32,000 nucleotides of DNA, taken from contig NZ_CP008796.1 of the NCBI RefSeq assembly GCF_000734015.1, positions 1,080,001 through 1,112,000 of the forward strand, given 5' to 3'. Positions 3,835 through 30,823 of this stretch are shown here, piece by piece. The notes below the pieces were generated by a model that was not told the DNA's origin, made no database searches, and saw nothing but the letters and a program-made list of their open reading frames with translations. This DNA comes from Thermodesulfobacterium commune DSM 2178 (lineage in GTDB: Bacteria > Desulfobacterota > Thermodesulfobacteria > Thermodesulfobacteriales > Thermodesulfobacteriaceae). Numbering within the stretch: position 1 is the stretch's first letter; each line of letters starts with the position of its first letter. Both the position numbers and the translations under genes were made by a program.

Positions 3835-4577
3835 TGAATTCCCAGATTAAAGAAGTAGAGGAGAAAAAACTAAGTCTAATTGAACACTTATTAGAACTTA
3901 GAGCTTGTCTAATAAAGGCATTTATTGGTTGGGTTATTGCTTCTGTAATTGCTTATTTTTTAGCAGACCACATCATAGATTTATTATTAAAACCTTTAAT
4001 GAAAGCTATACCTCAACAGAATTATGTATTTTTCCGTACCTTTCCTGAAGTTTTTGCTTCTTATCTTAAACTTTCTATAATAACAGGTTTTATTTTTGGT
4101 AGTCCTTATATTTTTTATCAACTGTGGTCCTTTATCGCCCCTGGACTTTATCCTCATGAACAAAAATGGGTAAAAACTGCAGTATTTTTAACCTCTTTTG
4201 CGTTTATTTTAGGAGACCTTTTGGCTTATTTCTTTTTTTTACCGTTTATTCTTAAATTCCTTTATTCTTTTGGGGAAAAATTTCTGGTTTTTAAACCTTT
4301 TTTAAAAGACTATATAAGTTTTTGTCTTCGTTTTTTTTTAATCATAGGGGCGGTGTTTCAAATACCATCTTTTATGGTTTTACTTAATCGGTTAGAAATA
4401 GTAAACTACGAAGGATTTAAAAAATTTAGACCTTATGCAATCCTTCTCGCCTTTTTTATAAGCGCTATACTAACTGGTGGAGGAGATCCTTTTAACCAAA
4501 TTATTTTAGCCATACCCTTGACACTATTATATGAAACAGGTATAATTTTAATCAGGTTATTTAAAACACTTAAATAA
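3834..4577 (+). CDS. tatC: Twin-arginine translocase subunit TatC
   Basis: N-terminus LSLIEHLLELRACLIKA... followed by 6 hydrophobic segments; ATG overlaps the tkt TAA by 1 nt; tatA follows. Confidence 0.85.
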   Translation: MNSQIKEVEEKKLSLIEHLLELRACLIKAFIGWVIASVIAYFLADHIIDLLLKPLMKAIPQQNYVFFRTFPEVFASYLKLSIITGFIFGSPYIFYQLWSFIAPGLYPHEQKWVKTAVFLTSFAFILGDLLAYFFFLPFILKFLYSFGEKFLVFKPFLKDYISFCLRFFLIIGAVFQIPSFMVLLNRLEIVNYEGFKKFRPYAILLAFFISAILTGGGDPFNQIILAIPLTLLYETGIILIRLFKTLK

Positions 4578-5241: not shown

Positions 5242-6498
5242 TTACTTAAAAAGTTCTACTTTATAATTTTCCGGAGCATTAAATACTTCATCTACATGTT
5301 TGGTGAACTTAAAGTGCATAGAAGTTCTGTAGGTAGTATAAGCAAGTCTGTAATCGTCAATACACTTTTCAGTAAATGGAATACCGGTTAATTCAAAGAA
5401 TCTTTCCCAACCAATTCTGTTAATCCAAGTACCAATCCTTTCGTACTTATTAGCATGCTGAGAATAGATCTCAATAATCTTTTTAATCCATTTAACAGTG
5501 GTTGGCCAACGAGGAGGTTCATTAGGAATATAAGGTATTACTACTCTTGAAAATTCAGGAGGAGTAATCCTGTTAGAAACCTTTCCACCGACCACAATAG
5601 CAATACCATCACCTTCTCCGTCAGCAATAGGTAAAGCTGGACACATGGTATAACAGTTACCACAGAACATACAACGATCTACATTTATTCTAACTGTCTT
5701 TTTCTTCTTACCATCTACTTCAGCAGTAGCAGGTTTGATAGCACCTAAAGGACAGGAAGCTATAACCAATGGTATTTCACAAACATGTTCTAACCTTTCG
5801 TCTTCAACCAAAGGTGGTTTTCTGTGAATACCAACCAAGGCAAGGTCAGAACAATGCACAGCACCACACATGTTAAGACAACAGGCAAGGGCTAACTTAG
5901 TCTTTGCAGGAAGTTTATGAGATCCAAAGTATTCAAATAGTTCATCCATGATAGCCTTAACTATACCGGAAGCGTCGATAGCAGGAGTATGACAGTGGAT
6001 CCATCCCTGGGTATGGACTATGTTGCTAATACCTGCCCCTGTACCACCGATAGGAAACTTATAAGAACCATTAGGATGTTTCCTGTTTTTCAAGTCTTCT
6101 ATAAGAGCCTTTAAAGTTTCTTCATCAGTTACATGAAATTCTACGTTATTACGGGTAGTCCAGCGTACATAACCGCCACAATATTTATCTGCGATCTCAC
6201 AAATTTCTCTGATGTAGTCTGTAGTTTCCAAACGAGGGGTACCACATCTTACCACATAAACTACATCACCTGTTTCAGACTTATACTTTAAAACCCCAGG
6301 TTGGATTATCTCATGAGAAACCCATTTACCATAGTTTTTCTGAATAACAGGTGGCATAAACTGCCAGAAATAAGGAGGTCCTATATCAGTAATTCTGTTT
6401 TCCATGGGTTTTTCAGGGTTATACAACTTTTCTGCCAAAGTTGGATCATAGGGCTGTGTATAAATCGGGTCTAACTCTTTAAATTTTTCAATTCCCAT
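5242..6498 (-). CDS. dsrB: Dissimilatory sulfite reductase beta subunit
   Basis: [17 protein letters not shown]-terminal signature; sirohaem/[4Fe-4S] cysteines ([24 protein letters not shown]); ferredoxin-like insert CPLGAI...[12 protein letters not shown]; SD AAGGAGGG before the ATG. Confidence 0.9.
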
Positions 6499-6556
6499 TT
6501 TACCCTCCTTTTATTTTAAAATATTTAGGTCTTTATTCATCAAATCCATCCTCACC

Positions 6557-7855
6557 TTAAGCAGGGTGGCGTTTTCTAAATTCAGCCACGTCTCTGGTCC
6601 AACCACCCTCAACCTCTTCTTCCTTCCAGAAGATGTATGGGTTGTCACGAGGTACTCTTACATGCTGAGGAATAGGTGTAAGTCCCATAACCTCGGTGAT
6701 AAACTTGTTCAAACCAATTCTCTGGATAAGTTCACCGATACGTTCACGGTTCTTTCCATTTTCCATCCAATAATCCCAGGCCTTATAGATAAAATCTTTA
6801 AGTTCATCATAAGGTGGTTCCACCTTCATAAAAGGAACAATAAGGGTAGAAAGCTGAGCACCTTCTAAGATCGGGGCTTTAGCTCCGATCAATATAGCGA
6901 TACCGGTATCTTGACCAGGTCTTAAAGCCTCTGGCATAACAGCTATACAGTGCATACACCTGTTGCATTCACTGTTGTTGATATAAAGCTTCTGCTCGTT
7001 TTCATCCCAGTACATACACTTGGTAGGACAAAGGTCAATAACTTCCTTCTTAATATCAAAAGGACCCCAGTCTCTGTCAGAAAAAGCACCTGCATTAGGT
7101 TTAAGCTCACCCCTTACATAGGCTCTTACTGCTTCTTGATCTATTCTAATTTCATCTCTCCAAGTACCTATGAAAGACATGTCAGCTCTTGCTACAGCAG
7201 CCACACAATCTAAGGGACATCCAGAAAATTTAAACTTAAACTTATATGGAAATGCAGGACGGTGCAATTCATCTTGGAAAGCCATGGTTAACTCATAGTC
7301 TAATTCTTGAACATCTATCAAAGCCCACTCACAACGAGACTTACCCACGCAGCAAGCAGGGCTTCTTAAGTTAGAACCAGAACCACCAAGATCCCAATGA
7401 AGCTGATGAGTTAAGTCAAAAAAGATAGGCTCAAGCTGGTCAGTAACCGTACCTAAAAGGATGATATCACCGGTAGAACCATGAAAGTTAACAATACCAC
7501 TACCCCTATGATCCCACATATCACAGAGTTTCCTTAAAGCTGAAGTATGATACCACTTTCCTGCGGTATGGTGCACACGGATAGTATGGAAAGCCCAGAT
7601 AGCAGGGAATCTTTCCTGCTGGTCAGAATAACGCCCAATAACTCCACCACCATAACCAAACACACCAACAATACCACCGTGCTTCCAATGGGTCTCTTTG
7701 TGGGTATAGGAAAGCTCCATTTGACCCATTATGTCAAAACAGGCTTGTTTCTTGTGCTTCTCACCATAAGAATAAATGTCATCAACAAAACTTGGCCAAG
7801 GACCAGTCTTAAGCTGGTCTATTTTCGGTGTATCATGTTTTTTCACCTCGCCCAT
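6557..7855 (-). CDS. dsrA: Dissimilatory sulfite reductase alpha subunit
   Basis: TPKIDQLKTGPWPSFV, ETHWKHGGIVGVFGYGGGVIGRY and HGSTGDIILLGT are classic DsrA blocks; ferredoxin domain CNRCMHCI; SD AGGGAGGG before the ATG. Confidence 0.9.
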   Translation of the reverse strand: MGEVKKHDTPKIDQLKTGPWPSFVDDIYSYGEKHKKQACFDIMGQMELSYTHKETHWKHGGIVGVFGYGGGVIGRYSDQQERFPAIWAFHTIRVHHTAGKWYHTSALRKLCDMWDHRGSGIVNFHGSTGDIILLGTVTDQLEPIFFDLTHQLHWDLGGSGSNLRSPACCVGKSRCEWALIDVQELDYELTMAFQDELHRPAFPYKFKFKFSGCPLDCVAAVARADMSFIGTWRDEIRIDQEAVRAYVRGELKPNAGAFSDRDWGPFDIKKEVIDLCPTKCMYWDENEQKLYINNSECNRCMHCIAVMPEALRPGQDTGIAILIGAKAPILEGAQLSTLIVPFMKVEPPYDELKDFIYKAWDYWMENGKNRERIGELIQRIGLNKFITEVMGLTPIPQHVRVPRDNPYIFWKEEEVEGGWTRDVAEFRKRHPA

Positions 7856-8060: not shown

Positions 8061-8738
8061 ATGGAAATTTTTGTTATAGAAAAGGTAACCAAAGTTTATA
8101 ACCCCTATTTTAAAGTGCTGGATGAAGTATCTTTTATCGTAAAAGAAGGAGATTTTTTGATCTTAACCGGACCGACTGGAGCAGGTAAAACCACCCTTCT
8201 AAAGTTACTTTACCGAGAAGAAAAACCTACTGACGGAGAAATATTTTACAAAAACTTCCCTTACTCTAAGCTCAATAAACGACATTTTTTACATCTAAGA
8301 CGCAATTGGGGGATCATTTTTCAAGATTACAAACTAATACCAGACTTAACGGTTTTTGAAAATATAAAAATCTCTTTAATCTTAAGTCAAAAAAAAGTAC
8401 CTAAAATAAAATTTCACATCTTAAACTATCTTGAAAGATTTAACCTTGCTGCCAAGGCCTTCAAAAAAGTAAAAGAACTTTCAGGAGGTGAACAACAGAA
8501 AGTAGGTATCGTAAGAGCTATCATTAGAGACCCTGAATTGTTAATAGCTGATGAACCTACAGGAAATCTTGATCCTGAAAGCATAAGGGAAATTATTAAG
8601 ATATTTCAAGAATATCAACAAGCAGGAAAAACGGTAATTCTTGCTACCCATGACCCAGTTATCCTACAACTTAACGCGGGAAAAATTCTTAGATTAGAAC
8701 AAGGAAGGTTGGTAGGAAATGTTCAAACTTCTTGCTAA
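8061..8738 (+). CDS. ftsE: Cell-division ABC ATPase FtsE
   Basis: Walker A GPTGAGKTT, signature LSGGEQQKV, Walker B LLIADEPT; followed by an overlapping FtsX-like permease. ATG 8061 (MEIFVIEKVTKVY) is preferred to the tracked TTG 8019. Confidence 0.75.
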   Translation: MEIFVIEKVTKVYNPYFKVLDEVSFIVKEGDFLILTGPTGAGKTTLLKLLYREEKPTDGEIFYKNFPYSKLNKRHFLHLRRNWGIIFQDYKLIPDLTVFENIKISLILSQKKVPKIKFHILNYLERFNLAAKAFKKVKELSGGEQQKVGIVRAIIRDPELLIADEPTGNLDPESIREIIKIFQEYQQAGKTVILATHDPVILQLNAGKILRLEQGRLVGNVQTSC

Positions 8739-9579
8739 GTTAGAGATTAAAAAGGGTTTACTTTATTATCTTTTTTTTATCCTATTTTTCTTTTTTTGGA
8801 ACTTTTTTTCTTTAGCCCTTATTTATGCTTATGGAGTTTTATTTACCTTAGAAAAACACTGGAAAGATCAAATAACCTTAACCCTCTTTTATTATCCTAA
8901 AGACCAAGAGCAGTTAGAACTTTTTATTAAAGGACTGCAAAACAGCTTTTCTTCTTTCACAGAAAAAATTGAAGTAGTTACTCCAGAAATGGTCCTAAAC
9001 CAAGCTCAAAAAAACCTTCCCAAAGAAATAACCCAAATTTTTACTGAAGAAGAGCTCAAGGAAAACTTACCTTTTCTCATCAAAATTTATCCTAAATCTT
9101 TGGGAAGTTATATAGAACTTACAGAGCGTTTAAAACTAATCGCCGCCTCAACTCCTGCTTTAGAGCTTCAAAACCCTAAATATTTTAAGTTTCTAAAACT
9201 AAGCTTTTTTCTCAAATCAGGGATAATCGGGTTTTGGTTTAGCTGGATAATAGTTTATCTCGGGGCTATTTTTTTTATAAATAACTTATTAAACAACCTG
9301 CTTTATCAACAATATAAACTGATCCTTCTTTTAGGAGGTAATCCTTTTTATCTAAAATTCATCAGGTTGGGTTTTTTGGTTTCTCTCATAACCTTAGGAT
9401 TCTTTAGTTCAGGGGCTACCTTTTACTTAGCAGTAAATTCTTTAACAAGTATCATAAACTTTCCTCTTTTAGATATTTTCTGGGTAAATCCCTGGTATTC
9501 TTTGGTGTATTTTATCCTTTTGGTAGTATTAATACCTTTTTTAAGTGTGTGGATAAGTTTTTGGGGTTATGAAATATAG
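8719..9579 (+). CDS. ftsX: FtsX-like cell-division permease
   Basis: Has FtsX topology: TM1, a ~115-aa extracytoplasmic loop, then 3 C-terminal TMs. It overlaps ftsE by 20 nt. Confidence 0.65.
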   Translation: MFKLLAKLEIKKGLLYYLFFILFFFFWNFFSLALIYAYGVLFTLEKHWKDQITLTLFYYPKDQEQLELFIKGLQNSFSSFTEKIEVVTPEMVLNQAQKNLPKEITQIFTEEELKENLPFLIKIYPKSLGSYIELTERLKLIAASTPALELQNPKYFKFLKLSFFLKSGIIGFWFSWIIVYLGAIFFINNLLNNLLYQQYKLILLLGGNPFYLKFIRLGFLVSLITLGFFSSGATFYLAVNSLTSIINFPLLDIFWVNPWYSLVYFILLVVLIPFLSVWISFWGYEI

Positions 9580-10195
9580 AAAAATCTTAACCCTCTTAGG
9601 GTGCCTTATTCTAATTTTCTCAAAAAATAATGTTTTATGTCTTCCTACTCAAGACTTAAAATTAAAGGATATAGAAAGAAGATTAACAGACATAGAACAA
9701 ACTAAAAAAGAGATTTTGAGAGAATATCTAAAACTCTTTATCAGAAACCATCATATTTCTTATTTAAAGGATGAATATCCTTTAAACAGGTTTTTAGAAA
9801 AAACCTTACTCAAAAAAATAATCCAACTAAACCAAGAAAGGTTAAGATTAGAAACTAAAAAAGCAGAGCTTATCAACATGTATTTGTTTAACAAAAAAAT
9901 TATTTCCCAGGTTATAAATCCTGTTTCTGGAGAGGCTATTAACCCAGGAGAGTATAGTTTTAAACTAACCCCTCCTGTTTTTATTAGAGCTCCCATTTCT
10001 GGAATGATAACCAACATAAAATACTTGTCAGAAGGGATTATGGTTAAGGTAGAAAATGAAAAATGCAGTGTGTCTATGTTTCCCTTAAGTAGCATAAGGA
10101 TAGACTTGGGAGAAAAGGTAGTGATGAAAGAAATCCTCGGAGAGGTCAAAAATAACAACTTTCTTAGGGCAAAGATAAAATGTAGTTCTGAATAA
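9569..10195 (+). CDS. Secreted coiled-coil protein with a histidine-free LytM/M23-like C-terminal domain (EnvC-like)
   Basis: Signal peptide MKYRKILTLLGCLILIF; central K/E/L-rich coiled-coil; C-terminus APISGMITNI...GIMVKVENEKCSVSMFPLSSIRIDLGEKVVMKEILGEV follows the M23 fold pattern but has no His residues; overlaps ftsX by 11 nt. Confidence 0.4.
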   Translation: MKYRKILTLLGCLILIFSKNNVLCLPTQDLKLKDIERRLTDIEQTKKEILREYLKLFIRNHHISYLKDEYPLNRFLEKTLLKKIIQLNQERLRLETKKAELINMYLFNKKIISQVINPVSGEAINPGEYSFKLTPPVFIRAPISGMITNIKYLSEGIMVKVENEKCSVSMFPLSSIRIDLGEKVVMKEILGEVKNNNFLRAKIKCSSE

Positions 10196-11132: not shown

Positions 11133-12203
11133 TTAACCCCTTTGTATTTGTTGTATAATGTCCTTTAATTTAACCTTCTCGTATGAAAAGGTTTCGTGAT
11201 TAAAAACCTCAGCCTCTTCCTCAGGATTTATTTTATCTAAATAAGGAGATATCTCCTTAGCCCCAAGATTAATAAACGTCTTTAAAATCAAGGCTTTTAT
11301 TTCAGAAGAAGAACGTTCTATCAGGTCTAAAAGCAAGAAATAGCTATGTTTTTTTAAAACTTCGGGATTTTTTTCGGAAATCCGGTAAAGCGCATAAAGG
11401 ACATAGCCGTGATATTCAGGAAACTTTAAAAAAGCTAACAGATTTTTTATAAAAATAGCATATCTATCTCCTGTCTCTCTTATGATCTCTCCTACTGCTT
11501 CAAGAGCCCCCCAGGCAGAAGACGCAGAATCAGCGGCAGCATAAAGAAGCCTTTTTATAAAGTCTAACAGTCTTTCTGGATAGACCTTAGCTAAGGCAGG
11601 AGATACTTTACCCAAAGCAACTACCGCTTTTCTACGAAAAACAGGGTCTGGATGGTAGAAAAACTTCTGAAGTACGTTGAGGTTTAAAGGTTCTGAAACT
11701 ATATAGATATTGAGAGTGTTGAAATCTTCCTTTTCGATTAACTCTTCTAATTCCCTTTTAGAAAGCTTTCTCCTAGGTTTGTTAAAGTCCTTTTCGGAGA
11801 GAGGTTCTTTTTGCAAAGCTTGACTTAGTTTTACGTGTTTTAATTCTCTAATGTCATCTGCTACTTTCAAAAAACAAAGCGCTCCTTTAGAGACTATCCT
11901 TGAAGTAGCTGGCATAGGAAGGATGGTATGGGTTTTTAAATCATAATTTTCAATCCAAACTTCTTTATAGTCTTCTTCAGGGATTAATTCCCACATCAAA
12001 TCCCAATCACCTGCAGTAGCAAGAAAAAGAGCCTCTATAAAGGCATTTCCTCGATTATGTCCGGTCACATCGCATACGTAAACACTCCCACATTCGCACA
12101 CACCAGCCTCTAAGTCAGAAAGACCTATAGGTAGAAGCTCTGGTTTTTTGATAAACCTACCACAAAAGGGACAGGTAGGAGGTTTAGGAACGGGCTTTTT
12201 CAT
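11133..12203 (-). CDS. Hypothetical protein: N-terminal Cys4 zinc-ribbon plus C-terminal HEAT/ARM-like helical repeats
   Basis: CPFCGRF...CECGSVYVCD at the N-terminus. The C-terminal 200 aa have repeat-like helices (PDPVFRRKAVVALGKV..., AWGALEAVGEII...). I do not recognise a characterised family. Confidence 0.5.
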   Translation of the reverse strand: MKKPVPKPPTCPFCGRFIKKPELLPIGLSDLEAGVCECGSVYVCDVTGHNRGNAFIEALFLATAGDWDLMWELIPEEDYKEVWIENYDLKTHTILPMPATSRIVSKGALCFLKVADDIRELKHVKLSQALQKEPLSEKDFNKPRRKLSKRELEELIEKEDFNTLNIYIVSEPLNLNVLQKFFYHPDPVFRRKAVVALGKVSPALAKVYPERLLDFIKRLLYAAADSASSAWGALEAVGEIIRETGDRYAIFIKNLLAFLKFPEYHGYVLYALYRISEKNPEVLKKHSYFLLLDLIERSSSEIKALILKTFINLGAKEISPYLDKINPEEEAEVFNHETFSYEKVKLKDIIQQIQRG

Positions 12204-14775: not shown

Positions 14776-16017
14776 ATGCCTGATTGTCTTCCATTTTATG
14801 GGTGGAGATATAATCCTGAAAAAGTAAAAATCGAAGAAGTGGTTGCCCCTCCTTACGATGTGGTTGGCGAGGAAGAAAAAGCTTTTTATCAGAAAAAAAG
14901 TCCTTATAACATCTTTCATCTGGAGCTTCCTGAAACCTACCAAAAAGCCAAACACCTTTTGGAAGAGTGGATAAGGTCACAAATCCTTGTAAAAGAACCT
15001 AAACCTTGTCTCTATTTTTATGAACTATCCTTTATGAGAGAACAGAAAACCCTTTCCCGAAAAGGTTGGATTCTATTGGTAAAGCTACATCACTTTGAGG
15101 AAGGGATAGTTTTACCCCATGAGAAGGTTTTTCCAAAGGTAACAGATGATCGGTTTGAATTGCTTAAGACTACCGGGTTTCAGTTTAGTCAGATTTTTGG
15201 GTTGTATGAAGACCCGGACCTTCTTACCATTTCTTATAGTCCCAAAAATCTACTTTATGAAGTAACCCTTGACCAACAAACCCATCACCTTTATCAAGTT
15301 TCTGAGGTGGACATAATAAAAGAAGTGACTGACTATCTTAAACATCAAAAAATATACATAGCAGATGGACACCACAGATACACTACTGCCTTGAGATATA
15401 AAGAATACATGGAAAATAAGTTAGGCACAACCCCACCAAGGGATTATCATTACATAGCCATGTATGTTTGCCCTATAGAAGAGCCAAACCTACTTATGCT
15501 TCCTACTCATAGAATCTATCGTTTACCAAACCCTGAAGATTTAATTCAAGCCTTAAAAAATTGGGCAGAAAAAGTTTACACCACAGAGCCTATTAATTTT
15601 TCTCAGAATTTTTTTAAAATAAAAGAAAGGGATTTTGGTATTTGCTTTAAAAATAAAGTGATGATTTTCAGGATAAAACAAGAAGTGTATGAGCGTTTCC
15701 AACAGAAAGATCCGGTGCTTTCAAAACTAACCCTTTACAACTTTTTGTCCCTGATGGAACAAGCTTTTCAGATAAAAGAAGAAAGCTTAAAGGAACAAAA
15801 TCAGGTTGAATTTATCTCTGAGGTAAGAGAGGTTTTTAACCACGTCAAAGATCAAGAAATCGGAGTAATTTTCCCTGAGCTTTCTCCCTTAATCTTAAAA
15901 GAGGTTGCATTGCAAGGGAAAAGAATGCCTCATAAAAGCACGTTTTTTTATCCTAAAATCCTTACAGGGTTGGTTTTAAATGAAGTAAGAGGAAAACCTC
16001 TGGACTTTAAGTTATGA
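14776..16017 (+). CDS. DUF1015 family protein
   Basis: PFYGWRYNPEKV...VVAPPYDVVGEEE...SPYNIFHLELP and IADGHHRY match the DUF1015 (COG4198) pattern. Confidence 0.75.
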   Translation: MPDCLPFYGWRYNPEKVKIEEVVAPPYDVVGEEEKAFYQKKSPYNIFHLELPETYQKAKHLLEEWIRSQILVKEPKPCLYFYELSFMREQKTLSRKGWILLVKLHHFEEGIVLPHEKVFPKVTDDRFELLKTTGFQFSQIFGLYEDPDLLTISYSPKNLLYEVTLDQQTHHLYQVSEVDIIKEVTDYLKHQKIYIADGHHRYTTALRYKEYMENKLGTTPPRDYHYIAMYVCPIEEPNLLMLPTHRIYRLPNPEDLIQALKNWAEKVYTTEPINFSQNFFKIKERDFGICFKNKVMIFRIKQEVYERFQQKDPVLSKLTLYNFLSLMEQAFQIKEESLKEQNQVEFISEVREVFNHVKDQEIGVIFPELSPLILKEVALQGKRMPHKSTFFYPKILTGLVLNEVRGKPLDFKL

Positions 16018-16532
16018 AGGAGAGTTTAGCCTATTTTAACCACTGGCTTTCCTTTTACTACGAAAAAAAGGATTTATTTTTAAAAGACCCTTTTATTCAG
16101 GAAAAACTCGAATTATTAAAAAAAGCCATAGAAAAGAGTCGTCAGGCATTTATAGAAAAAGGGTCTTTTGCTTTTTGCAGTGCTTGTGCAAACTCAGGAG
16201 AGAAGTGTTGTAAAGCTGGGTTAGAATGGAAACTAAGTCCTGCTGAGTTTTTGATAAATCTTCTGCTTGCAGAAACCTATAGTTTACCCCTTGCTTTTAA
16301 TACTTCTCGAAAGGAAGACTGTCTCTTCTTAGGAGAAAAAGGGTGTAGCCTTATCCTTACCCCTATTTTTTGTAGAAACTTCTTCTGTGATAAACTGGTC
16401 AAACACTTAGGTCATGCTAACCTAACCTACATCCAGCAAGCGATGGAAGAGGAGGCTACCTTAGGTTTTATTGTAGCTAACTATATAACCACTAAATTGT
16501 TACAAAAGGAGGGAACTAAACATGGAGCTTAA
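16014..16532 (+). CDS. Cysteine-cluster protein (YkgJ/CxxC...CC-like putative Fe-S or Zn protein)
   Basis: FCSACANSGEKCCKAG and CLFLGEKGCSL...FCRNFFCD cysteine clusters; ATGA overlap with the DUF1015 gene. Confidence 0.45.
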   Translation: MKESLAYFNHWLSFYYEKKDLFLKDPFIQEKLELLKKAIEKSRQAFIEKGSFAFCSACANSGEKCCKAGLEWKLSPAEFLINLLLAETYSLPLAFNTSRKEDCLFLGEKGCSLILTPIFCRNFFCDKLVKHLGHANLTYIQQAMEEEATLGFIVANYITTKLLQKEGTKHGA

Positions 16533-24105: not shown

Positions 24106-24220
24106 TTAAATGAACCTCCTAATTGTTTTTCGATCATATTTTAAAGCATTTTTGGATTTTACCCAAATAAAAATCAATCCCGTGCCAATCTTCAAAATTG
24201 GTTGTAAAATAGGTTTCCAT

Positions 24221-25423
24221 ATGCGTAAACTCTCAAAAGAAACTCAAAAACTTTTTTATTTATCTCTCATCTATTTTTTTTCAGGCCTTCCTTTTGGTTT
24301 TTTCTATACCTTTATTCCTGTATTTTTAAGGACAGAAGGAATAAGTTTAGTACACATCGGACTTTTTTCCTTAGCCAGTTTGCCCTGGAGCCTAAGACTT
24401 CTATGGGCTCCTTTGATAGACCGGTATTTTAATAAAACTTTTTGGATGGGCATATCTTTAATAAGCATCGGAATAGTTATCTTATCGTTAGCCTTTATTC
24501 CTCCTCAAGGGATCACCTTTTTCATCTTGCTTATCCTGCTTTGTTTTTTTTCCTCGGTGTTTGATGCCGCTGCCGATGGTTTTGTGGTAGAGTGGATCCC
24601 TTCTGCTACCTTAGGAAAAGCTAATGGTTTGAGGATTGCTGCCTATCGTTTAGCCTTGATTACTTTTGGAGGTGGGTTAGTGGCAGTAAGCCATTACTTG
24701 GGTTTTAAATCGATATTTTATCTAATTTTTCTGGTAAGTTTATCCATAGGGCTATTTTTATTACTCAACCCTTTCCTTAAACACAACCTACCTAAAAAAA
24801 CCTATTCTCTAAAAGACCAGTTTATTCTACCCATTGTTGAGATACTAAAGAGGAAAGGGGTTTTCACCCTTCTTTTGTTTGTCTTTACTTACAAAATAGG
24901 GGATTCTTTGCTTGGGGCGATGGTTTATCCCTTTTGGGTGGACAGAGGTTTTTCTCGGTTAGAAATAGGGTTAGTTGCAGGCTCTATCGGAAGCCTTCTT
25001 ACCATCCTTGGGTCCCTTTTAGGAGGATATCTTTCCAGCAGATGGACGGCCAAAAAATCCTTGCTAACATTAGGCTTATTTCAAGCCTTTTCCAACTTAG
25101 GTTATACCTTTGCCTCTATTTCAGCCCTTCCCAAAGAGACCGTTTATTTAGCCTCTGTAATCGAAAGCTTTACCGGAGGCCTTGGCACAGCAGCCTTTGT
25201 TACCTTTCTTACCAAACTCTGCCAGAAAGAGTTTTCTTCAACCCAGTATGCGGTTTTTTCTACTCTGTTTAGCCTTTCTTTAACCTTATCAAGAAGCTTA
25301 TCAGGGGTTTTAACCACCTATTTAGGGTATACCTTATTTTTTGGTCTAACCTTTCTGGTTTCTCTCCCTGTTTTTCTTCTGATACCTAAGGTTACACAAC
25401 ATCTAAACTCGGAAGGCTCTTAG
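24221..25423 (+). CDS. ampG: MFS transporter, AmpG/muropeptide-permease-like
   Basis: 12 hydrophobic segments; LSLIYFFSGLPFGFF and LRLLWAPLIDRY resemble AmpG family motifs. ATG 24221 is preferred to tracked 24110, which would abut the divergent prmA start. Confidence 0.6.
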   Translation: MRKLSKETQKLFYLSLIYFFSGLPFGFFYTFIPVFLRTEGISLVHIGLFSLASLPWSLRLLWAPLIDRYFNKTFWMGISLISIGIVILSLAFIPPQGITFFILLILLCFFSSVFDAAADGFVVEWIPSATLGKANGLRIAAYRLALITFGGGLVAVSHYLGFKSIFYLIFLVSLSIGLFLLLNPFLKHNLPKKTYSLKDQFILPIVEILKRKGVFTLLLFVFTYKIGDSLLGAMVYPFWVDRGFSRLEIGLVAGSIGSLLTILGSLLGGYLSSRWTAKKSLLTLGLFQAFSNLGYTFASISALPKETVYLASVIESFTGGLGTAAFVTFLTKLCQKEFSSTQYAVFSTLFSLSLTLSRSLSGVLTTYLGYTLFFGLTFLVSLPVFLLIPKVTQHLNSEGS

Positions 25424-25854
25424 AAATTAATTTGAAATTTTTTAGCATAAGGACAAACCCTTTTAGGAGGCCATTTTTTAAAAATCTTATCCTTTTCAGA
25501 ATGGCAGTTTAGACAAAAACCTACCTTTAAAATTTTTACCAGTTCCTCCTGAGTAAAAGGACGAAGATTTGGCCGAGAAAAATTGACCAGCTTAGTTCCG
25601 TTAAGATTAACCATTTGAGAAAGACAAACCCTTGGGGATTTTATAAAAGTTTTTTCTAAGTTTACTACCTCTATTGAATTTTTGGTTTTTACCACTTTTC
25701 CATATCCTAACCCTAAGGTTTTTGTGTTCTGATGACAGCTTTTACAGGAGCGTCCTTGTTTCCCTGTGCTATGAGGGTTAAGTTTAGCAAAGGTAAGACT
25801 TGTTATTTCTTTTTTTACCTCTCCTGTCTCTGAGAGGATGGTGATAAAATCCTG
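25420..25854 (-). CDS. In-frame continuation of the multihaem cytochrome c beyond TGA 25855-25857 (144 codons, 2 CxxCH)
   Basis: Hand translation shows the same frame as ORF 25855..27168 and no stop: QDFITILSETGEVKKEITSLTFAKLNPHSTGKQGRSCKSCHQNTKTLGLGYGK, then the tracked ORF VVKTKNS...CLNCH.... There is no ATG/GTG/TTG before 25695, no SD and no signal peptide. Confidence 0.55.
   Translation of the reverse strand, partial: QDFITILSETGEVKKEITSLTFAKLNPHSTGKQGRSCKSCHQNTKTLGLGYGKVVKTKNSIEVVNLEKTFIKSPRVCLSQMVNLNGTKLVNFSRPNLRPFTQEELVKILKVGFCLNCHSEKDKIFKKWPPKRVCPYAKKFQINF
25818..25837 (-). other. Hairpin 17 nt downstream of the in-frame UGA (candidate SECIS-like element)
   Basis: RNA CCUCUC-AGAGACAG-GAGAGG: 6 Watson-Crick pairs (4 G-C), an 8-nt loop with G at loop position 2. 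It is short and was not scored with any model. Confidence 0.25.
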
Positions 25855-27168
25855 TCAGCCTGGGGTAACGGTAACCACTCTTTGATTATCTTCCACCGCT
25901 AAAGTAGGAAGTGCAAGTCTTCTATAAGATTCATGCTCTATCCAAAGCCCCTTCGTTTCCTTAGCAAGTATTTTGTCAAGATGGGTGTCTCTTGGGTCAT
26001 ATTTGATATGACAGCCGTAACAATCAGGCATATGTTTGGCATGGCAGCTTACACAGGTTAATCGTTTATGATAAGAAAGACTACAAGCTTTAACTGGTTT
26101 TTTGATTAAAACCCTTTTTTCAGAACCTTTACTTTCTAAATAAGCTTGCTTACCTTTTTTATAAAAATTTTTGAGTTTTCTTCCTTTTTTAGTAGTACCA
26201 TCTCCTCCATGACAGGTTTGGCACTCAATTTCTAAAGCCTCATGTAAACTGTAATAAAAATTTCCATCTCCCATCACTTCTTCTTTAGTATGGCAGTCTA
26301 TGCAAGATAACCCTTTTTGGAAATGAATATCAGGAGAAACCCGATCTAACCATCTTCCGTCAACCCAAACTTCATCCCCTATCCCACCTTGCTCATTTTC
26401 ATAAAGTCCTTGATAGGTGAATCCTATCCTCCCACTTCGGTTATGGCACCTTACACAGTTTTCCATCGGAGGATATCTAACCAGTTTAGGATGAACTTTT
26501 CGAGAAGAATTGGGGGTCTCATCTTTCTCTTTTACCGAATGACAGGCGGTACATCCCCCTCCTTTTTCTTTCAAAAAATAGGGAAGTTTTCCCTTTTCTA
26601 ACCAAAGATGACAACTACCACAAAGTTTTCGATAATAGTCTAAACCTAAACTGTTTTTGGTTTTATGATAAACCTCTTGATGATAAAGTTGAGATACACT
26701 CAACTTAGGATATAAAGATAAAACCTCTTTTTCTTCAAAAACTTCAACCACTCTTTTTATCATTCCATGGTTGGTAGCCATAAGAGAATTTTTTACCTTC
26801 GATATCTCCGTAAGATGACATCCTGGTTGTCCACAGGTAAGATTAACATATCTCAGATCTCCAGGGTTTTTTACTATGTTTTTATGGGCCTCTTTAAAAT
26901 CTAAAGTATAAGGATTTCCTAAATGACAGGAAGAACAACCAACGACCTTTTTGTCGTGCACCTTTTCAGGAACTACCTCCTGATGACAAGTAATACATAA
27001 CTCTACTTCACCTGAGGTTAACTTAGCAACCTCCCGTCTATCTTTTTTAGCTTCAGAATAGAACAAACAGAGTAAGATAACTAATCCTAATAAAATCCAA
27101 AATGACTTAGTCTTAGCTAAACGTTTAAGTGTGGGCATCTCTGTAGATGATAAGACTAAAAATAACAT
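25855..27168 (-). CDS. Membrane-anchored/exported multihaem cytochrome c (9 CxxCH + 1 CxxxxCH up to the TGA)
   Basis: Motifs CITCH, CSSCH, CGQPGCH, CGSCH, CTACH, CVRCH, CIDCH, CQTCH, CVSCH, CYGCH. N-terminal anchor KRLAKTKSFWILLGLVILLCLF. Start is either ATG 27168 or ATG 27138; both overlap the cytochrome b gene end. Confidence 0.85.
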   Translation of the reverse strand: MLFLVLSSTEMPTLKRLAKTKSFWILLGLVILLCLFYSEAKKDRREVAKLTSGEVELCITCHQEVVPEKVHDKKVVGCSSCHLGNPYTLDFKEAHKNIVKNPGDLRYVNLTCGQPGCHLTEISKVKNSLMATNHGMIKRVVEVFEEKEVLSLYPKLSVSQLYHQEVYHKTKNSLGLDYYRKLCGSCHLWLEKGKLPYFLKEKGGGCTACHSVKEKDETPNSSRKVHPKLVRYPPMENCVRCHNRSGRIGFTYQGLYENEQGGIGDEVWVDGRWLDRVSPDIHFQKGLSCIDCHTKEEVMGDGNFYYSLHEALEIECQTCHGGDGTTKKGRKLKNFYKKGKQAYLESKGSEKRVLIKKPVKACSLSYHKRLTCVSCHAKHMPDCYGCHIKYDPRDTHLDKILAKETKGLWIEHESYRRLALPTLAVEDNQRVVTVTPG

Positions 27169-27985
27169 AAACTAACAACCACCATATTAAAGCCCCAACT
27201 ATCCAGAGGCTAAACTTTCTTGCAGGCTTAAAACCTAAAAGAACAAGCCAAACAACCGCTAAAAAAAGTAAAAAAAGCACTCCCAAAGGGGGTAAAAACT
27301 TTAAAAGTCCCTGAGCTCCCCAAAAAAACCATGGACCAGTAACTATCGTTTTCCCTTTCTCTGACTCAAGAGGAACATAAAAGATGAGAGGCAAAATCAG
27401 GTTTAGGTAAAGATAAGGGGCATATTTAAGGCTTAAAACCCGTTTAATCGAGGCATGCCAAACAAAAAGCCCTATGGCTAATAAAAAAGAACCATAAATA
27501 TGGGCTAAATAAACTCTATAAAGACCTCCTTTAGAGATTGGGAACAAAAGGTCTCTTAAGACTTCTCCTACATAAGGTATGCTTAAACAAAGATTTTCAG
27601 CTATGGTTCCTGCAAGCTTCCCTACCTCATCAAACCTTATCACATAACCGGTAAAGGTAATAAAAATAAGGACGATAAAGCTTAACACCAAAAACAACCA
27701 GGCAACAAAATTCTTTTTATGATGCCATCCTTTGTAAAGGCTATCTATCAGATGGAAAAAAGTTGAGATTAAAGCAAGTTGAGAAGAAAAGTAGTGAAGA
27801 CTTCTAAAAAACCTGCCAAAAGGCACCGATGACTCTAACCGAATCACACTGTAGAGAGGTTCGGTATAAAAGTAATGATAACTAACCACCATCCCAGATA
27901 AAATAGAGATTATAAGGCTTATCAAACAGAGATTGGCTATAAACAGGTTGATTTTTGAAGAGGTAGAAAAGCTAAAAAACCTCAA
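27125..27985 (-). CDS. Cytochrome b (b6 + subunit-IV-like, 7 TM) of a Rieske/cyt b complex
   Basis: His pairs H64/H78 (13 intervening, RSLHYFSS...FFH) and H162/H177 (14 intervening, LAHIYG...VWH) lie in predicted helices B and D. TGYVIRFDE replaces TGYxLPWxQ, and GPWFFWGAQGLLK aligns to the PEWY Qo region. The only available start is TTG 27985, overlapping the Rieske gene by 14 nt. Confidence 0.75.
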   Translation of the reverse strand: MRFFSFSTSSKINLFIANLCLISLIISILSGMVVSYHYFYTEPLYSVIRLESSVPFGRFFRSLHYFSSQLALISTFFHLIDSLYKGWHHKKNFVAWLFLVLSFIVLIFITFTGYVIRFDEVGKLAGTIAENLCLSIPYVGEVLRDLLFPISKGGLYRVYLAHIYGSFLLAIGLFVWHASIKRVLSLKYAPYLYLNLILPLIFYVPLESEKGKTIVTGPWFFWGAQGLLKFLPPLGVLFLLFLAVVWLVLLGFKPARKFSLWIVGALIWWLLVYVIFSLIIYRDAHT

Positions 27986-28367
27986 CCTCTAAACCCTGAG
28001 AATTAAGTCTGTAGTTGTATGTAGTAAGGTCTTTTTTAGCAGGTCCAGAGAGAAACTTTCCTGAAAGATTAAATTTACTTTGATGACAGGGACAGACGAT
28101 CAGAGCCTCTTCAGGAGAATAGTTAAGCAAACAGCCTAAATGAGGACACTTCCTGGAAAAAACCTTAAAATTAGAGCCTGTTTTCATCACAATAAAGTTT
28201 TCTTTAAATAGTATATCTTTAGCTTTTTCTATCTCCTCAAAAAGAACGATAACCTTTTTAGGTGGGGGAGAAGATAAACTAGTTAGGTTTTTAAAAGCTC
28301 CATAGGTTAAAAAACCCAAAACACCCAAAGAAAAAAGCCTTAAAAAGTTTCGTCTCTTTTTATCCAT
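27972..28367 (-). CDS. Rieske [2Fe-2S] protein, bc-type, Tat-exported, minimal (131 aa)
   Basis: Twin-arginine signal KRRNFLRLFSLGVLGF; box I CPHLGC and box II CPCHQS, including the extra disulfide cysteines typical of bc1/b6f Rieske proteins. Confidence 0.85.
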   Translation of the reverse strand: MDKKRRNFLRLFSLGVLGFLTYGAFKNLTSLSSPPPKKVIVLFEEIEKAKDILFKENFIVMKTGSNFKVFSRKCPHLGCLLNYSPEEALIVCPCHQSKFNLSGKFLSGPAKKDLTTYNYRLNSQGLEVEVF

Positions 28368-28369
28368 TT

Positions 28370-28933
28370 TTATTTAAAATAAACCGATAATTTTTTAAAC
28401 TCTTCGGTTCCTGCTTTTTGTAAAAGTTGAAAAGTGATGGTTTCGGTATCACCAGGCAAAGCCCCTGCAAGTATGCTAAGCTGAAGGCCTGTCTTCCAGT
28501 TTTCCTCTTTACGACTACATACAGCATCCTTAGGTAAAAACACAAAATATCCTTTCGAAAGAAGGCTTAAGGCAGTTTGATAGATACAAATGTGAGTTTC
28601 CATCCCTGTCAGAATTACTTTATTACGTCCATAGGACCTTAAAGTAGCTAAAAATTTCTCTTCGGCACAACAATCAAAGGTTATCTTCTCAATAGGATGA
28701 TATTCGGGAAGGACCTTTTTTAAGTCCTCTATGGTTTGTCCTAACCCTTTAGGATATTGTTCGGTAAGGATAACAGGTATTCCTAAGACTTTAGCCACCT
28801 CAACCAAGATGATTATGTTTTTTATTATCTTAGAAACTATCTTTTCTTCCATCGCTCTCACCAATTTTTCCTGTACATCTACCACAATCAGAATTGCCTC
28901 TTCGGACTTGATAAAATACCTTTCCCAGTCCAT
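28370..28933 (-). CDS. Isochorismatase-family cysteine hydrolase
   Basis: ILIVVDVQEKL (Asp), VILTGMETHICIYQTALSL (nucleophile Cys) and the overall ~185-aa size fit the family. Confidence 0.7.
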   Translation of the reverse strand: MDWERYFIKSEEAILIVVDVQEKLVRAMEEKIVSKIIKNIIILVEVAKVLGIPVILTEQYPKGLGQTIEDLKKVLPEYHPIEKITFDCCAEEKFLATLRSYGRNKVILTGMETHICIYQTALSLLSKGYFVFLPKDAVCSRKEENWKTGLQLSILAGALPGDTETITFQLLQKAGTEEFKKLSVYFK

Positions 28934-28950
28934 CTTAACCCCCTGTAATT

Positions 28951-29574
28951 TTAGTCAAACCTTTCTTCTTTAACACTTGGTGCAAGTTCCTTTAAAGCCC
29001 TTTTTATCAATTCATCTAAGGTAACCCCTTCTTCAAAAACGTTATACAAAACAGAATCTATCTCTTTAGAACTAAATCCTAAGGATAAAAGACAGCTTTT
29101 AGCCTCTTCAAGGACCATTTCTTTTTCTGGAGGTAAGGTTATCCCTTTGAGGCTGGGTTTTAAAAATAAGTTCTTTAGTTCTAAAAACAGTTTTTCTGCC
29201 CTTTTGGGGCCTATACCTGGAACTTTTGCAAGCTCCTTCCAACGTGCTTCGAGGATTACTTGTCTCAGCTCTTCAGGAGAAAAGACAGAAAGTACGTTTA
29301 ACGCAAGTTTAGGACCAACCTTAGAAAGGGTGTTCAGTTTTATAAAAAGCTCTCTGGTTTCTTTGTCTAAAAATCCATAAAGCTCTAAAAATTCGTTTTT
29401 TCTTATAAAACTAACCAAATACATGGTTATCGGTTTATCAATAAACTTAGTTTTAAGCGGCTCTACCAAGTTTAAAGGCACAAAAACTTCTATGGATAAA
29501 ACCTGTAAAATTTCTATGATTGCTTTATTAGGGGGATTTACAGTTTTTAGAACCCCTGAGACTGCAAAAAACAA
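28951..29574 (-). CDS. ruvA: Holliday junction branch-migration complex subunit RuvA
   Basis: LYGFLDKETRELFIKLNTLSKVGPKLALNVLS and the HhH motif LAKVPGIGPKRAEKL. Confidence 0.85.
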   Translation of the reverse strand: MFFAVSGVLKTVNPPNKAIIEILQVLSIEVFVPLNLVEPLKTKFIDKPITMYLVSFIRKNEFLELYGFLDKETRELFIKLNTLSKVGPKLALNVLSVFSPEELRQVILEARWKELAKVPGIGPKRAEKLFLELKNLFLKPSLKGITLPPEKEMVLEEAKSCLLSLGFSSKEIDSVLYNVFEEGVTLDELIKRALKELAPSVKEERFD

Positions 29575-29576
29575 AA

Positions 29577-30077
29577 TTAACCTCCTAGTTCAAAACCAAG
29601 TAAAAGAGCCACTGCTAAGGCATCCACCTTATGAGAGTCTAACCCATCTTCCTCAAAATCTTCTACAAAAGATAAAACCCCGTGTTTACTCAACCACTGA
29701 ATTTGAGAAACCATATCCTGTTTTTCAGCATTTCCATTTTGGGTCAAAAACTTTTTTATTTCCTTAGGAGTAAAAGTTTTAAACCTAAGATTATAAAGCC
29801 CACAGAGAAGCAACACCAAAGCCTGAGCCTGAGAAAGCTTTAGGGTAGCATTTCCAACCCCTCGGGTATAAACCTCTTCTAACGCCAAATAATCTGGGGA
29901 AAATTTATTTATGATATTTTTAAGGCTCTCAAAGATCAAAGCCAGCTTTTGAGGAAGGGATAAGGTTGGAGGGGGGCTGATGGTCCCCCAGGTTAACACC
30001 TTAAATCTTTGCTGAGATTTTTCCACACAGGCATAACCTAAATGATTGAGCCCAGGGTCTATCCCCAAAATTTTCAT
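29577..30077 (-). CDS. ruvC: Holliday junction resolvase RuvC
   Basis: MKILGIDPGLNHLGYA..., LALEEVY, DSHKVDALAVAL. Confidence 0.85.
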   Translation of the reverse strand: MKILGIDPGLNHLGYACVEKSQQRFKVLTWGTISPPPTLSLPQKLALIFESLKNIINKFSPDYLALEEVYTRGVGNATLKLSQAQALVLLLCGLYNLRFKTFTPKEIKKFLTQNGNAEKQDMVSQIQWLSKHGVLSFVEDFEEDGLDSHKVDALAVALLLGFELGG

Positions 30078-30823
30078 CTATTAAGTTTTTCCATGATATT
30101 TTCAGGGATATCAAAGTTAGCATATACCTGCTGGACGTCGTCGTTATCATCCAGTGCTTCGATAAGTTTTAAGAGGGTGTTTGCGGTTTGTTCATCTGAG
30201 ATAGGAACAAGAGTTTTTGGTACCAAAGTAAGCTTGGCAGAAAGGATTTCAATCCCAGCCTCTTCTAAGGCCTTCTTAACCTCTTCAAACTGAGAAGGTT
30301 CTGTGATGATTTCGACCTCACTTTCATACTCTTTGGTATCCTCTGCCCCTTTTTCTATAGCTATCTCTAAAGCCTTCTCTTCATCCTTTTTAGGTACAAC
30401 GATCAATCCTTTGTGTTCAAAGATCCAAGAAACTGCCCCTGGCTCTGCCAAATTACCCCCATGTTTACTAAAAATATGTCTTACCTCAGAAACAGTTCTT
30501 CTCCTATTATCGGTGATAGCATGGACCAAGATGGCAACCCCACCAGGACCATACCCTTCAAACACCGCCTCTTCATAATTAGTCCCTTCTTCTTGCCCTA
30601 AGGCTTTTTTTATGGCCCTTTCGATGTTTTCTTTGGGCATGTTAGCTGCTCTTGCCGCCTGGATAGCTGCCCTTAACCTTGGATTTAAATCAGGGTCTCC
30701 ACTTCCACCCGTCCTTACAGCAACCACGATTTCTCTTATCAGTTTAGTAAATATTTGACCTCTTTTAGCATCTTGAGCCGCTTTTTTTCTTTTTATTTGT
30801 GCCCAATGGGAATGTCCAGCCAT
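30074..30823 (-). CDS. yebC: YebC/PmpR family DNA-binding regulator
   Basis: MAGHSHWAQIKRKKAAQDAKRGQIFTKLIREI...NPRLRAAIQAARAANMPKENIERAIKK. Confidence 0.9.
   Translation of the reverse strand: MAGHSHWAQIKRKKAAQDAKRGQIFTKLIREIVVAVRTGGSGDPDLNPRLRAAIQAARAANMPKENIERAIKKALGQEEGTNYEEAVFEGYGPGGVAILVHAITDNRRRTVSEVRHIFSKHGGNLAEPGAVSWIFEHKGLIVVPKKDEEKALEIAIEKGAEDTKEYESEVEIITEPSQFEEVKKALEEAGIEILSAKLTLVPKTLVPISDEQTANTLLKLIEALDDNDDVQQVYANFDIPENIMEKLNR

Follow-up and report, generated by a model that had tools for sequence, protein, structure and literature searches.

We analysed a 32-kb stretch of DNA (the window) from a Thermodesulfobacterium close to T. commune, and describe here a three-gene feature on its minus strand, at 25420-28367, that encodes a Rieske 2Fe-2S protein, a compact cytochrome b and a multihaem cytochrome c. 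The most informative feature of this locus is a TGA codon within the cytochrome c frame. On comparative sequence evidence the cytochrome c is very probably a 582-amino-acid (aa), 12-haem selenoprotein with selenocysteine at residue 438 (Sec438), and we have high confidence that the UGA at 25855-25857 is decoded as selenocysteine. A selenocysteine predicted at a position that varies between Met and Cys, and that probably ligates a haem, is what makes the locus worth following up. An open reading frame (ORF) scan found three tightly packed reading frames in the feature, to which two further elements were added:

27972..28367, minus strand: Rieske 2Fe-2S protein, 131 aa, from the ORF and a match to Pfam Rieske PF00355
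27125..27985, minus strand: compact cytochrome b, 286 aa, from the ORF and a match to Pfam Cytochrome_B
25420..27168, minus strand: ExtM-like 12-haem cytochrome c, very probably 582 aa with an internal UGA as selenocysteine
25855..25857, minus strand: UGA in frame within TPG-U-QD, predicted as Sec438 from a codon census of related loci
25818..25837, minus strand: hairpin resembling a selenocysteine insertion sequence (SECIS), weak alone and supported as a class

The cytochrome c frame starts at 27168 and includes an N-terminal membrane helix (residues 22-40; 27049-27105) and twelve haem motifs, 11 CxxCH and one CxxxxCH. All twelve lie in a single reading frame, while just one CxxCH occurs in the other five frames of the whole window; the motifs are therefore not a chance pattern. 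Pfam matches of c3/c7 type were also found. The uninterrupted ORF is 437 aa long (25855-27168) and closes at an in-frame TGA at 25855-25857 (context cca ggc TGA cag gat). Ten haem motifs precede this codon, motifs 11 and 12 lie in the next 144 open codons, and the read-through frame ends at a TAA at 25420-25422. An earlier, sequence-only reading had described three overlapping minus-strand genes, the last encoding a membrane-anchored cytochrome of 10-12 haems with CxxCH/CxxxxCH motifs as the c-type partner. The genes are real and do overlap, the Rieske and cytochrome b ORFs by 14 nucleotides (nt) and the cytochrome b and cytochrome c ORFs by 44 nt, or by 14 nt should translation really begin at Met11; the helix and the 12 in-frame motifs likewise bear out a membrane-anchored multihaem protein. 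The third gene, however, is not one uninterrupted ORF, and an end at 25420 needs read-through of the TGA that follows motif 10. The window protein is 94-95% identical to its counterparts in T. hveragerdense and T. thermophilum. In public records this cytochrome is cut at 437 aa, as is the Thermodesulfobacterium protein, or divided in two. Several 12-haem homologues from Desulfobulbaceae (P0018, P0047, P0059, P0065 and others) are named "amino acid ABC transporter substrate-binding protein" by NCBI, an evident misannotation.

Relatives retrieved by protein database search differ at the place of the TGA. The short ones, of about 403-437 aa and from Thermodesulfobacterium and Caldimicrobium, end at ...TPG in all seven cases aligned, and the full-length ones, of 565-600 aa and from Desulfobulbales, Desulfurivibrionaceae and their kin, carry an invariant TPG-C-QD there. 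The relatives' loci were scanned using one genome per species (561 relatives), and the best 80 loci were analysed. The codon census of these best 80 loci gave, at the Sec438 place, TGA 25 times, TGC 42 times and TGT 14 times, and never TAA or TAG. The tblastn alignments run across this codon up to the C-terminus, and TGA is kept across lineages that are only 45-55% identical. All 12 haem motifs are invariant in the 78 complete read-through sequences. When the window is compared with T. hveragerdense, the 144 codons after the TGA show 20 synonymous and 8 non-synonymous changes, a pattern matching that upstream of the TGA (49 synonymous versus 26 non-synonymous), and this codon comparison argues that the downstream part is under purifying selection. 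A signal peptide was looked for in the downstream part and none was found, and the first start codon of the window's downstream ORF comes after haem motif 11; the tail would therefore be exported and loaded with haem only as part of the fused protein. The sequence hallmark of a bacterial selenoprotein, a UGA in frame that aligns with Cys of homologues and has a conserved open frame after it, is the pattern seen here.

The SECIS-like hairpin of the window, CCUCUC-AGAGACAG-GAGAGG, begins its stem at the 18th base past the UGA. Measured against mononucleotide shuffles, the mean z of the hairpin is -2.27 in the TGA class and -0.63 in the TGC/TGT class (Mann-Whitney p = 3e-7), and the downstream sequences of the TGA class fold better despite a lower G+C than in the TGC/TGT class. 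When synonymous-codon variants of the same peptide serve as the reference, the means are -1.66 for the Sec class and -0.67 for the Cys class (p = 2e-4); the window hairpin gives z = -1.84 in this comparison, with 4% of variants folding equally well. The Cys-class loci themselves fold slightly better than their own synonymous variants (Wilcoxon p = 4e-6), an excess that may be left over from a Sec-type ancestor or may reflect coding bias in general. Two Caldimicrobium loci (L003:2515 and L008:2399) have TGC where sister Caldimicrobium have TGA and retain the downstream hairpin; they look like recent Sec-to-Cys conversions that carry a "fossil SECIS".

Several observations speak against selenocysteine decoding. 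The window hairpin has a short stem of 6 bp (-8.9 kcal/mol at 37 C), and against dinucleotide shuffles its z is only -0.81. A single SECIS consensus or covariation model was tried and dropped, the hairpins being out of register between lineages. The Sec and Cys classes are mostly separate clades, so that the class comparisons are partly confounded by phylogeny. Finally, selA, selB, selC and selD, sought in the window and the fetched loci only, were not seen there, and tRNA-Sec, looked for in the window and in all fetched loci, was not found either.

The wider family offers hints to the role of residue 438. When 1.84 billion cluster representatives were searched with a profile, 1772 relatives were found, of which 391 reached E <= 1e-30. 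Of these relatives 136 were aligned: 90 have Met at position 438, 38 have Cys and 8 have another residue, and the Pro-Gly just before it is conserved. M130 and M299, which are invariant methionines in the close family, alternate with His in the wider alignment. Exchange of Met with Cys at 438 and of Met with His at M130 and M299 is the pattern to be expected of axial ligands to haem. Directly after the haem-6 motif (C238xxC241H242) stand residues 243 and 249, and these vary in step with whether 438 is Met or Cys. C362 was considered as a partner of residue 438 and rejected, because it does not follow the Cys state across the family. Structure was assessed on an AlphaFold2 (AF2) model of the Cys-form homologue P0003, which is 58% identical to the window protein; the models hold no haems. 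Its pLDDT is 79.8 overall and about 85-95 in the half holding residue 438. In the model that residue forms the tip of a beta-hairpin, which belongs to a beta-rich domain lying between haems 10 and 11. Just nine strictly conserved His, Met or Sec positions outside the motifs are available as candidate distal ligands for 12 haems, so unusual coordination somewhere in the protein is plausible. Taken from these patterns, residue 438 would lie at a haem iron, probably as its distal ligand, and a Sec at a position that varies between Met and Cys suggests that this haem site is special and possibly catalytic. So far as we know, haem with a selenolate ligand has been obtained by engineering only. A PDB sequence search with the family profile returned only weak matches to NrfA (E 6e-4), and the best fold match, to the octahaem cytochrome c 1sp3, was non-significant (E 0.76).

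The other two proteins agree well with what had been read from the sequence, namely a 131-aa Rieske protein with a twin-arginine (Tat) signal and the boxes CPHLGC and CPCHQS, and a 286-aa cytochrome b like a fused b6 and subunit IV, with two correctly spaced bis-His pairs. In the Rieske ORF the Tat motif RRNFLR occupies residues 5-10 (28338-28355), box I (CPHLGC) residues 74-79 (28131-28148) and box II (CPCHQS) residues 92-97 (28077-28094). Thirteen residues separate the boxes, in which the disulfide cysteines known from bc-type Rieske proteins are present, and the ORF matches the Pfam Rieske family with E 1e-11. The context of box II, CPCH-Q-S-K-F, is the S-F ("Mid+") signature and is conserved in the relatives examined.

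The cytochrome b ORF matches Pfam Cytochrome_B (E 1e-14) and combines b6 and a subunit-IV-like part in one chain. Its haem ligands, His64/His78 (spacing 14) and His162/His177 (spacing 15), are of b6 type. Three of these four histidines stand in invariant columns of the family alignment; for the fourth, the 15-residue spacing is kept in the sequences counted by hand, an alignment gap being allowed for. Hydropathy gives six clear helices, or seven if the amphipathic helix B (His64/His78), which falls below threshold, is counted. The Qo motif is GPWF (27326-27337), in place of PEWY, and is invariant across the cytochrome b family alignment. The CxGG motif, the criterion for a third haem, haem c_n (PMC5600118), was looked for in the cytochrome b and its family alignment and not found; a third haem is therefore not predicted. 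Cytochromes b6 are the nearest solved relatives by sequence, and an AF2 model of the window protein (pLDDT 90.8, pTM 0.87) aligns full length to bc1/bcc cytochrome b chains in Foldseek (TMq 0.7-0.78, probability 1.00). A Q cycle, the bifurcated oxidation of quinol, is a trait of the superfamily and may apply to this protein.

Evidence that the proteins belong together includes natural fusions. Cytochrome b and the 12-haem domain are joined in 29 of 148 family representatives, in chains of 731-966 aa (28 of the 29 at 872-966 aa). A full cytochrome b forms the N-terminal half of 28 of these fusions, 23 of which have GPWF or GPWY; the shortest, P0242, matches the C-terminal part of cytochrome b only. 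Counted over all 29, one or other of these two motifs is present in 24. The fusions include P0222, P0231 and P0235, and their named members are metagenome-assembled genomes (MAGs) of Bacteroidales and Bacteroidota. Those visible in the printed alignment have Met at the Sec438 position. Adjacency also recurs: a Rieske or cytochrome b gene adjoins the cytochrome c gene in 10 of the 80 loci as well as in the window, and the order Rieske-cytochrome b-cytochrome c is found in T. hveragerdense, Thermosulfurimonas, Thermodesulfatator and MAGs of Thermodesulfobacteriales/Thermodesulfobacteriota. The ORFs of the module overlap in the window and in loci L015 and L028. The close homologues of cytochrome b and of cytochrome c share their common taxa, the Thermodesulfobacteria and the Desulfobulbales, including cable bacteria. 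The fusions and the recurring adjacency support the view that cytochrome b and the 12-haem cytochrome work together, and in this organism the three proteins would form a complex.

Linkage of the genes in relatives tells against an operon common to all of them. Near the cytochrome c gene, tblastn (E <= 1e-5, within the locus stretch only) detected neither a Rieske nor a cytochrome b gene in 69 of the 80 loci, among them loci of Caldimicrobium and Desulfobulbales, and ORF inspection of five unlinked loci (Caldimicrobium, cable bacteria, Desulfurivibrio and Desulfogranum) revealed no conserved neighbours. A Desulfobulbus locus (L081, with 8-kb flanks) has a Rieske-cytochrome b pair without an adjacent cytochrome c gene. 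A Caldimicrobium-like contig and a Thermodesulfobacterium MAG (L083 and L085) keep yebC-ruvC-ruvA-Rieske-cytochrome b and lack both the cytochrome c gene and the isochorismatase-like gene of the window. The idea of a Rieske/cytochrome b module with a multihaem c-type partner is upheld by fusions, adjacency and fold; in relatives the three genes do not generally lie together.

The module is a minimal member of a kind that has been named and is biochemically uncharacterised. Its architecture is not new, because it maps to the Geobacter Cbc6/ExtMNOPQS cluster and to the GPWY/GPWF clade of cytochrome b. The earlier view that the cluster corresponds to no characterised complex is thus right as to biochemistry, but the kind already has its names. 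The Geobacter cluster is only listed, as "Cbc6", a putative quinone oxidoreductase (bioRxiv 10.1101/2021.04.15.440034), and Kao & Hunte 2014 give the APWY and GPWY complexes as lacking biochemical characterisation (PMC4122944). In Geobacter the gene for ExtM shares its cluster with genes for a Rieske protein and a cytochrome b (PMC5877670). Like the window, the G. sulfurreducens cluster (GSU2930-2935) has a 12-haem ExtM-type cytochrome, a small Rieske protein (~14 kDa) and a b6-like cytochrome b, and ExtM and ExtP are the best NCBIfam matches of the window cytochrome c and cytochrome b. Both are homologues and not equivalogs: the cytochrome c scores 248.5 bits (plus 47.7 for the tail) against an ExtM equivalog cut-off of 800, and the cytochrome b 82.5 bits against 290 for ExtP. 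None of ten family representatives tested reached the ExtM cut-off. The window also differs from Geobacter in joining cytochrome b and an ExtQ-like part in one chain, in gene order, and in its Sec protein, which is ExtKL in the Geobacter cluster and the 12-haem cytochrome, as predicted, in the window. The companions extN, extS, extKL and extHIJ were not found in the window, nor was any other CxxCH-rich frame, porin or rhodanese gene nearby. Naming in this group is inconsistent: Jahan et al. 2018 used ExtO for the Rieske protein, and the NCBIfam model NF040968 "FeS_ExtO" (416 positions), described as an iron-sulfur subunit, matches the multihaem cytochrome and not the Rieske protein.

The GPWY/GPWF clade has been reported in the delta-Proteobacteria, the Ignavibacteria and the Nitrospinae, with Rieske signatures of "Mid+ to high" and, in Ignavibacterium, a member fused to a multihaem domain (PMC4122944). 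The window shares with it the GPWF Qo motif and the "Mid+" S-F Rieske signature, and is placed there by motif and signature; fusions to multihaem domains also occur among the family representatives examined here. With cytochrome b6f and the menaquinol:cytochrome c reductases of Firmicutes and Actinobacteria the window has in common the b6-type His spacing of helix D and the Rieske disulfide cysteines, and its cytochrome b matches QcrB and cytochrome b chains in fold. It differs from them in lacking CxGG, in a Qo motif without an acidic residue, and in a c subunit that is a 12-haem protein instead of cytochrome f, c1 or a dihaem cytochrome.

For selenium-haem chemistry the closest parallel is MccSep (ExtKL), described in 2026 as a five-haem polysulfide reductase whose active site consists of Sec and a Cys-ligated (His/Cys) haem (PMC13510729). 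Both MccSep and the window cytochrome are periplasmic multihaem proteins with one Sec (here a predicted one) in a loop of a beta-domain and a Sec/Cys pair across lineages. They occur in the same kinds of organisms, Thermosulfurimonas included, which makes MccSep a direct precedent for selenium-haem sulfur chemistry. MccSep differs in having five haems, in being soluble and tetrameric, in its Sec context (DG-U-P) and in its separate haem-ligating Cys; kinship was not detected, the window protein having no match to NF040886 (E <= 0.01) and no related PDB sequence or fold match. In TsdA, SoxAX and DsrJ a Cys at the haem iron is the reactive centre for S-S chemistry. The likeness to residue 438 is one of analogy, and homology of the window cytochrome to these proteins was not detected. 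In Campylobacter, TsdA is supplied with electrons by a bc complex. Among the prokaryotic selenoprotein families reviewed in 2026 are three kinds of cytochrome (ExtKL, a GSU2204-family protein and the octahaem tetrathionate-reductase family), with ExtM not among them (PMC13188914). The window cytochrome matches none of the three family models, and this probable selenoprotein thus appears to have been overlooked as well as misannotated.

We propose that the three proteins would form one cytoplasmic-membrane complex of the Rieske/cytochrome b superfamily, within the GPWF/GPWY clade and akin to the Cbc6 core of ExtM, Rieske protein and cytochrome b. At the Qo-type site of the two-haem cytochrome b, together with the Tat-exported Rieske cluster, menaquinol would be oxidised or menaquinone reduced, and electrons would be exchanged between the Rieske cluster and the membrane-anchored periplasmic 12-haem cytochrome. 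The full-length cytochrome would be made only by decoding of the UGA as selenocysteine. Sec438 would sit at a haem iron, probably as distal ligand, in a position that is Cys in Desulfobulbales and Met in distant relatives, and the haem associated with it would be a special, probably catalytic, end-point and not a relay. Its substrates would most plausibly be periplasmic S-S or S-Se compounds such as tetrathionate/thiosulfate, polysulfide or sulfur-derived species. In outline, as a menaquinol-linked, three-subunit complex whose 12-haem subunit has a Sec-associated haem acting on periplasmic S-S compounds, we consider this reading reasonably probable; the genes, motifs and fold, the Sec/Cys pair, the conservation downstream, the enrichment of hairpins, the fusions and the synteny are shown, and the formation of a complex in this organism, the Sec-haem contact, the substrate and the direction of electron flow are what we infer. 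Tetrathionate/thiosulfate fits the predicted Rieske potential best, and polysulfide would fit by analogy with MccSep. A difficulty for the proposal is that the S-F signature, by the rule in PMC4122944, predicts about +260 mV, which suits tetrathionate and not polysulfide as acceptor. The complex may also operate in reverse, as Kao & Hunte discussed for the APWY clade (PMC4122944). A more specific version is offered tentatively, as possible and not as our expectation: Sec438 would be the distal axial ligand of a c-type haem, that haem would be catalytic in a menaquinol-linked S-S enzyme, and the Cys form would be the missing cytochrome c subunit of the Rieske/cytochrome b pair of Desulfobulbales and cable bacteria.

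Two alternatives would undo the 12-haem protein or the complex altogether. If the TGA were a true stop, or the gene in decay, the product would be a 437-aa, 10-haem cytochrome and the 144 codons beyond it a remnant. This is how public annotation has it (a 437-aa protein, P0001), and the window hairpin is weak by itself; yet TGA, and no other stop, stands in 25 independent genomes at the very codon that encodes Cys in others, the frame beyond it is open with both haem motifs invariant and synonymous changes prevailing, and that part could not be exported or haem-loaded alone, so we find a true stop scarcely credible. It is also very improbable that the Rieske-cytochrome b pair and the cytochrome c are accidental neighbours that form no complex in this organism. 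The 69 loci without detected linkage, and close relatives that keep yebC-ruvC-ruvA-Rieske-cytochrome b without the cytochrome, would be expected if they were. Against it stand the natural fusions of cytochrome b with a multihaem domain, the overlapping ORFs of the window, L015 and L028, and the independent adjacency in Geobacter.

The remaining alternatives accept the complex and dispute what its haems do. The 12-haem cytochrome may merely relay electrons from the Rieske protein to soluble periplasmic cytochromes or an external partner, with Sec/Cys438 tuning a potential or serving structure. Twelve invariant haem motifs and c3/c7-type Pfam matches would suit such a wire, as would the Met at 438 of most family members, a residue typical of haems that do no more than transfer electrons. 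A haem with His/Cys or His/Sec ligation, on the other hand, would be of very low potential and a poor relay after a mid- or high-potential Rieske protein. Selenocysteine is costly and, in the selenoproteins treated in PMC13510729 and PMC13188914, is found at redox-active or catalytic sites, and here it appears to be kept across lineages that have diverged to 45-55% identity. The window holds no outer-membrane conduit genes, and the wire to an extracellular partner suggested by the sequence-only reading finds no specific support, there being no porin or outer-membrane cytochrome in the window. We regard a simple relay as unlikely, though deserving of attention. Less likely still is a menaquinol-dependent reductase for an acceptor other than sulfur compounds, whether peroxide or oxygen (in detoxification), nitrite or some further oxidant of high potential. 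Sec would then act as it does in peroxidases. The mid to high potential predicted from the S-F signature would allow this, Sec is typical of peroxide-reducing enzymes, and the weak profile similarity is to NrfA; the octahaem tetrathionate reductase of the organism that furnished the non-significant fold match, 1sp3, is reported to reduce tetrathionate, nitrite and hydroxylamine. Specific evidence for such an acceptor was not found, and the range of the family (sulfate reducers, sulfur disproportionators and cable bacteria) together with MccSep points to sulfur.

If Sec438 is indeed at a haem iron, the cytochrome would be a second, independent case of selenium-haem association in sulfur metabolism, after MccSep. 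The switch between Met, Cys and Sec at one conserved position offers a testable handle on the function of a widespread Rieske/cytochrome b class in strict anaerobes. Electron-transport models for cable bacteria and Desulfobulbales invoke a Rieske/cytochrome b pair without naming its c subunit, and the window operon and the natural fusions nominate the orphan 12-haem cytochrome as partner of such a pair.

Assignment of the host follows the cytochrome b, which falls in a 90%-identity cluster bearing the name Thermodesulfobacterium commune; this host is thermophilic. It had been taken for a sulfite reducer, and dsrAB is indeed present in the window, at 5242-7855 on the minus strand. A few hundred bases away from dsrB and dsrA lies tatC (3834-4577, plus strand), with acetolactate synthase subunits and a transketolase-family protein (Pfam Transketolase_N, Transket_pyr and Transketolase_C) upstream of it. 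Four ORFs of 172-356 aa, at 8719-10195 (plus), 11133-12203 (minus) and 16014-16532 (plus), have no Pfam family at E <= 1e-5, and two of them come after an ABC ATPase gene. An Rfam scan returned tRNA and no other RNA family. Convergent with the cytochrome c gene is a gene for a major facilitator superfamily (MFS) transporter (24110-25423, plus), with a weak acetyl-CoA-transporter-like match, which overlaps the last codon and stop codon of the cytochrome by 4 nt.

On the other side of the module, at 28370-30823 on the minus strand, yebC, ruvC, ruvA and a gene resembling isochorismatases and nicotinamidases precede the Rieske and cytochrome b genes. All of these nearly abut, so they may share a common transcript. 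The isochorismatase-like gene (28370-28933) was considered as a member of the module and rejected, being absent in L083 and L085 and divergent in Thermosulfurimonas. In Thermosulfurimonas it adjoins an ORF that, on its sequence, we take to encode a nicotinate phosphoribosyltransferase.

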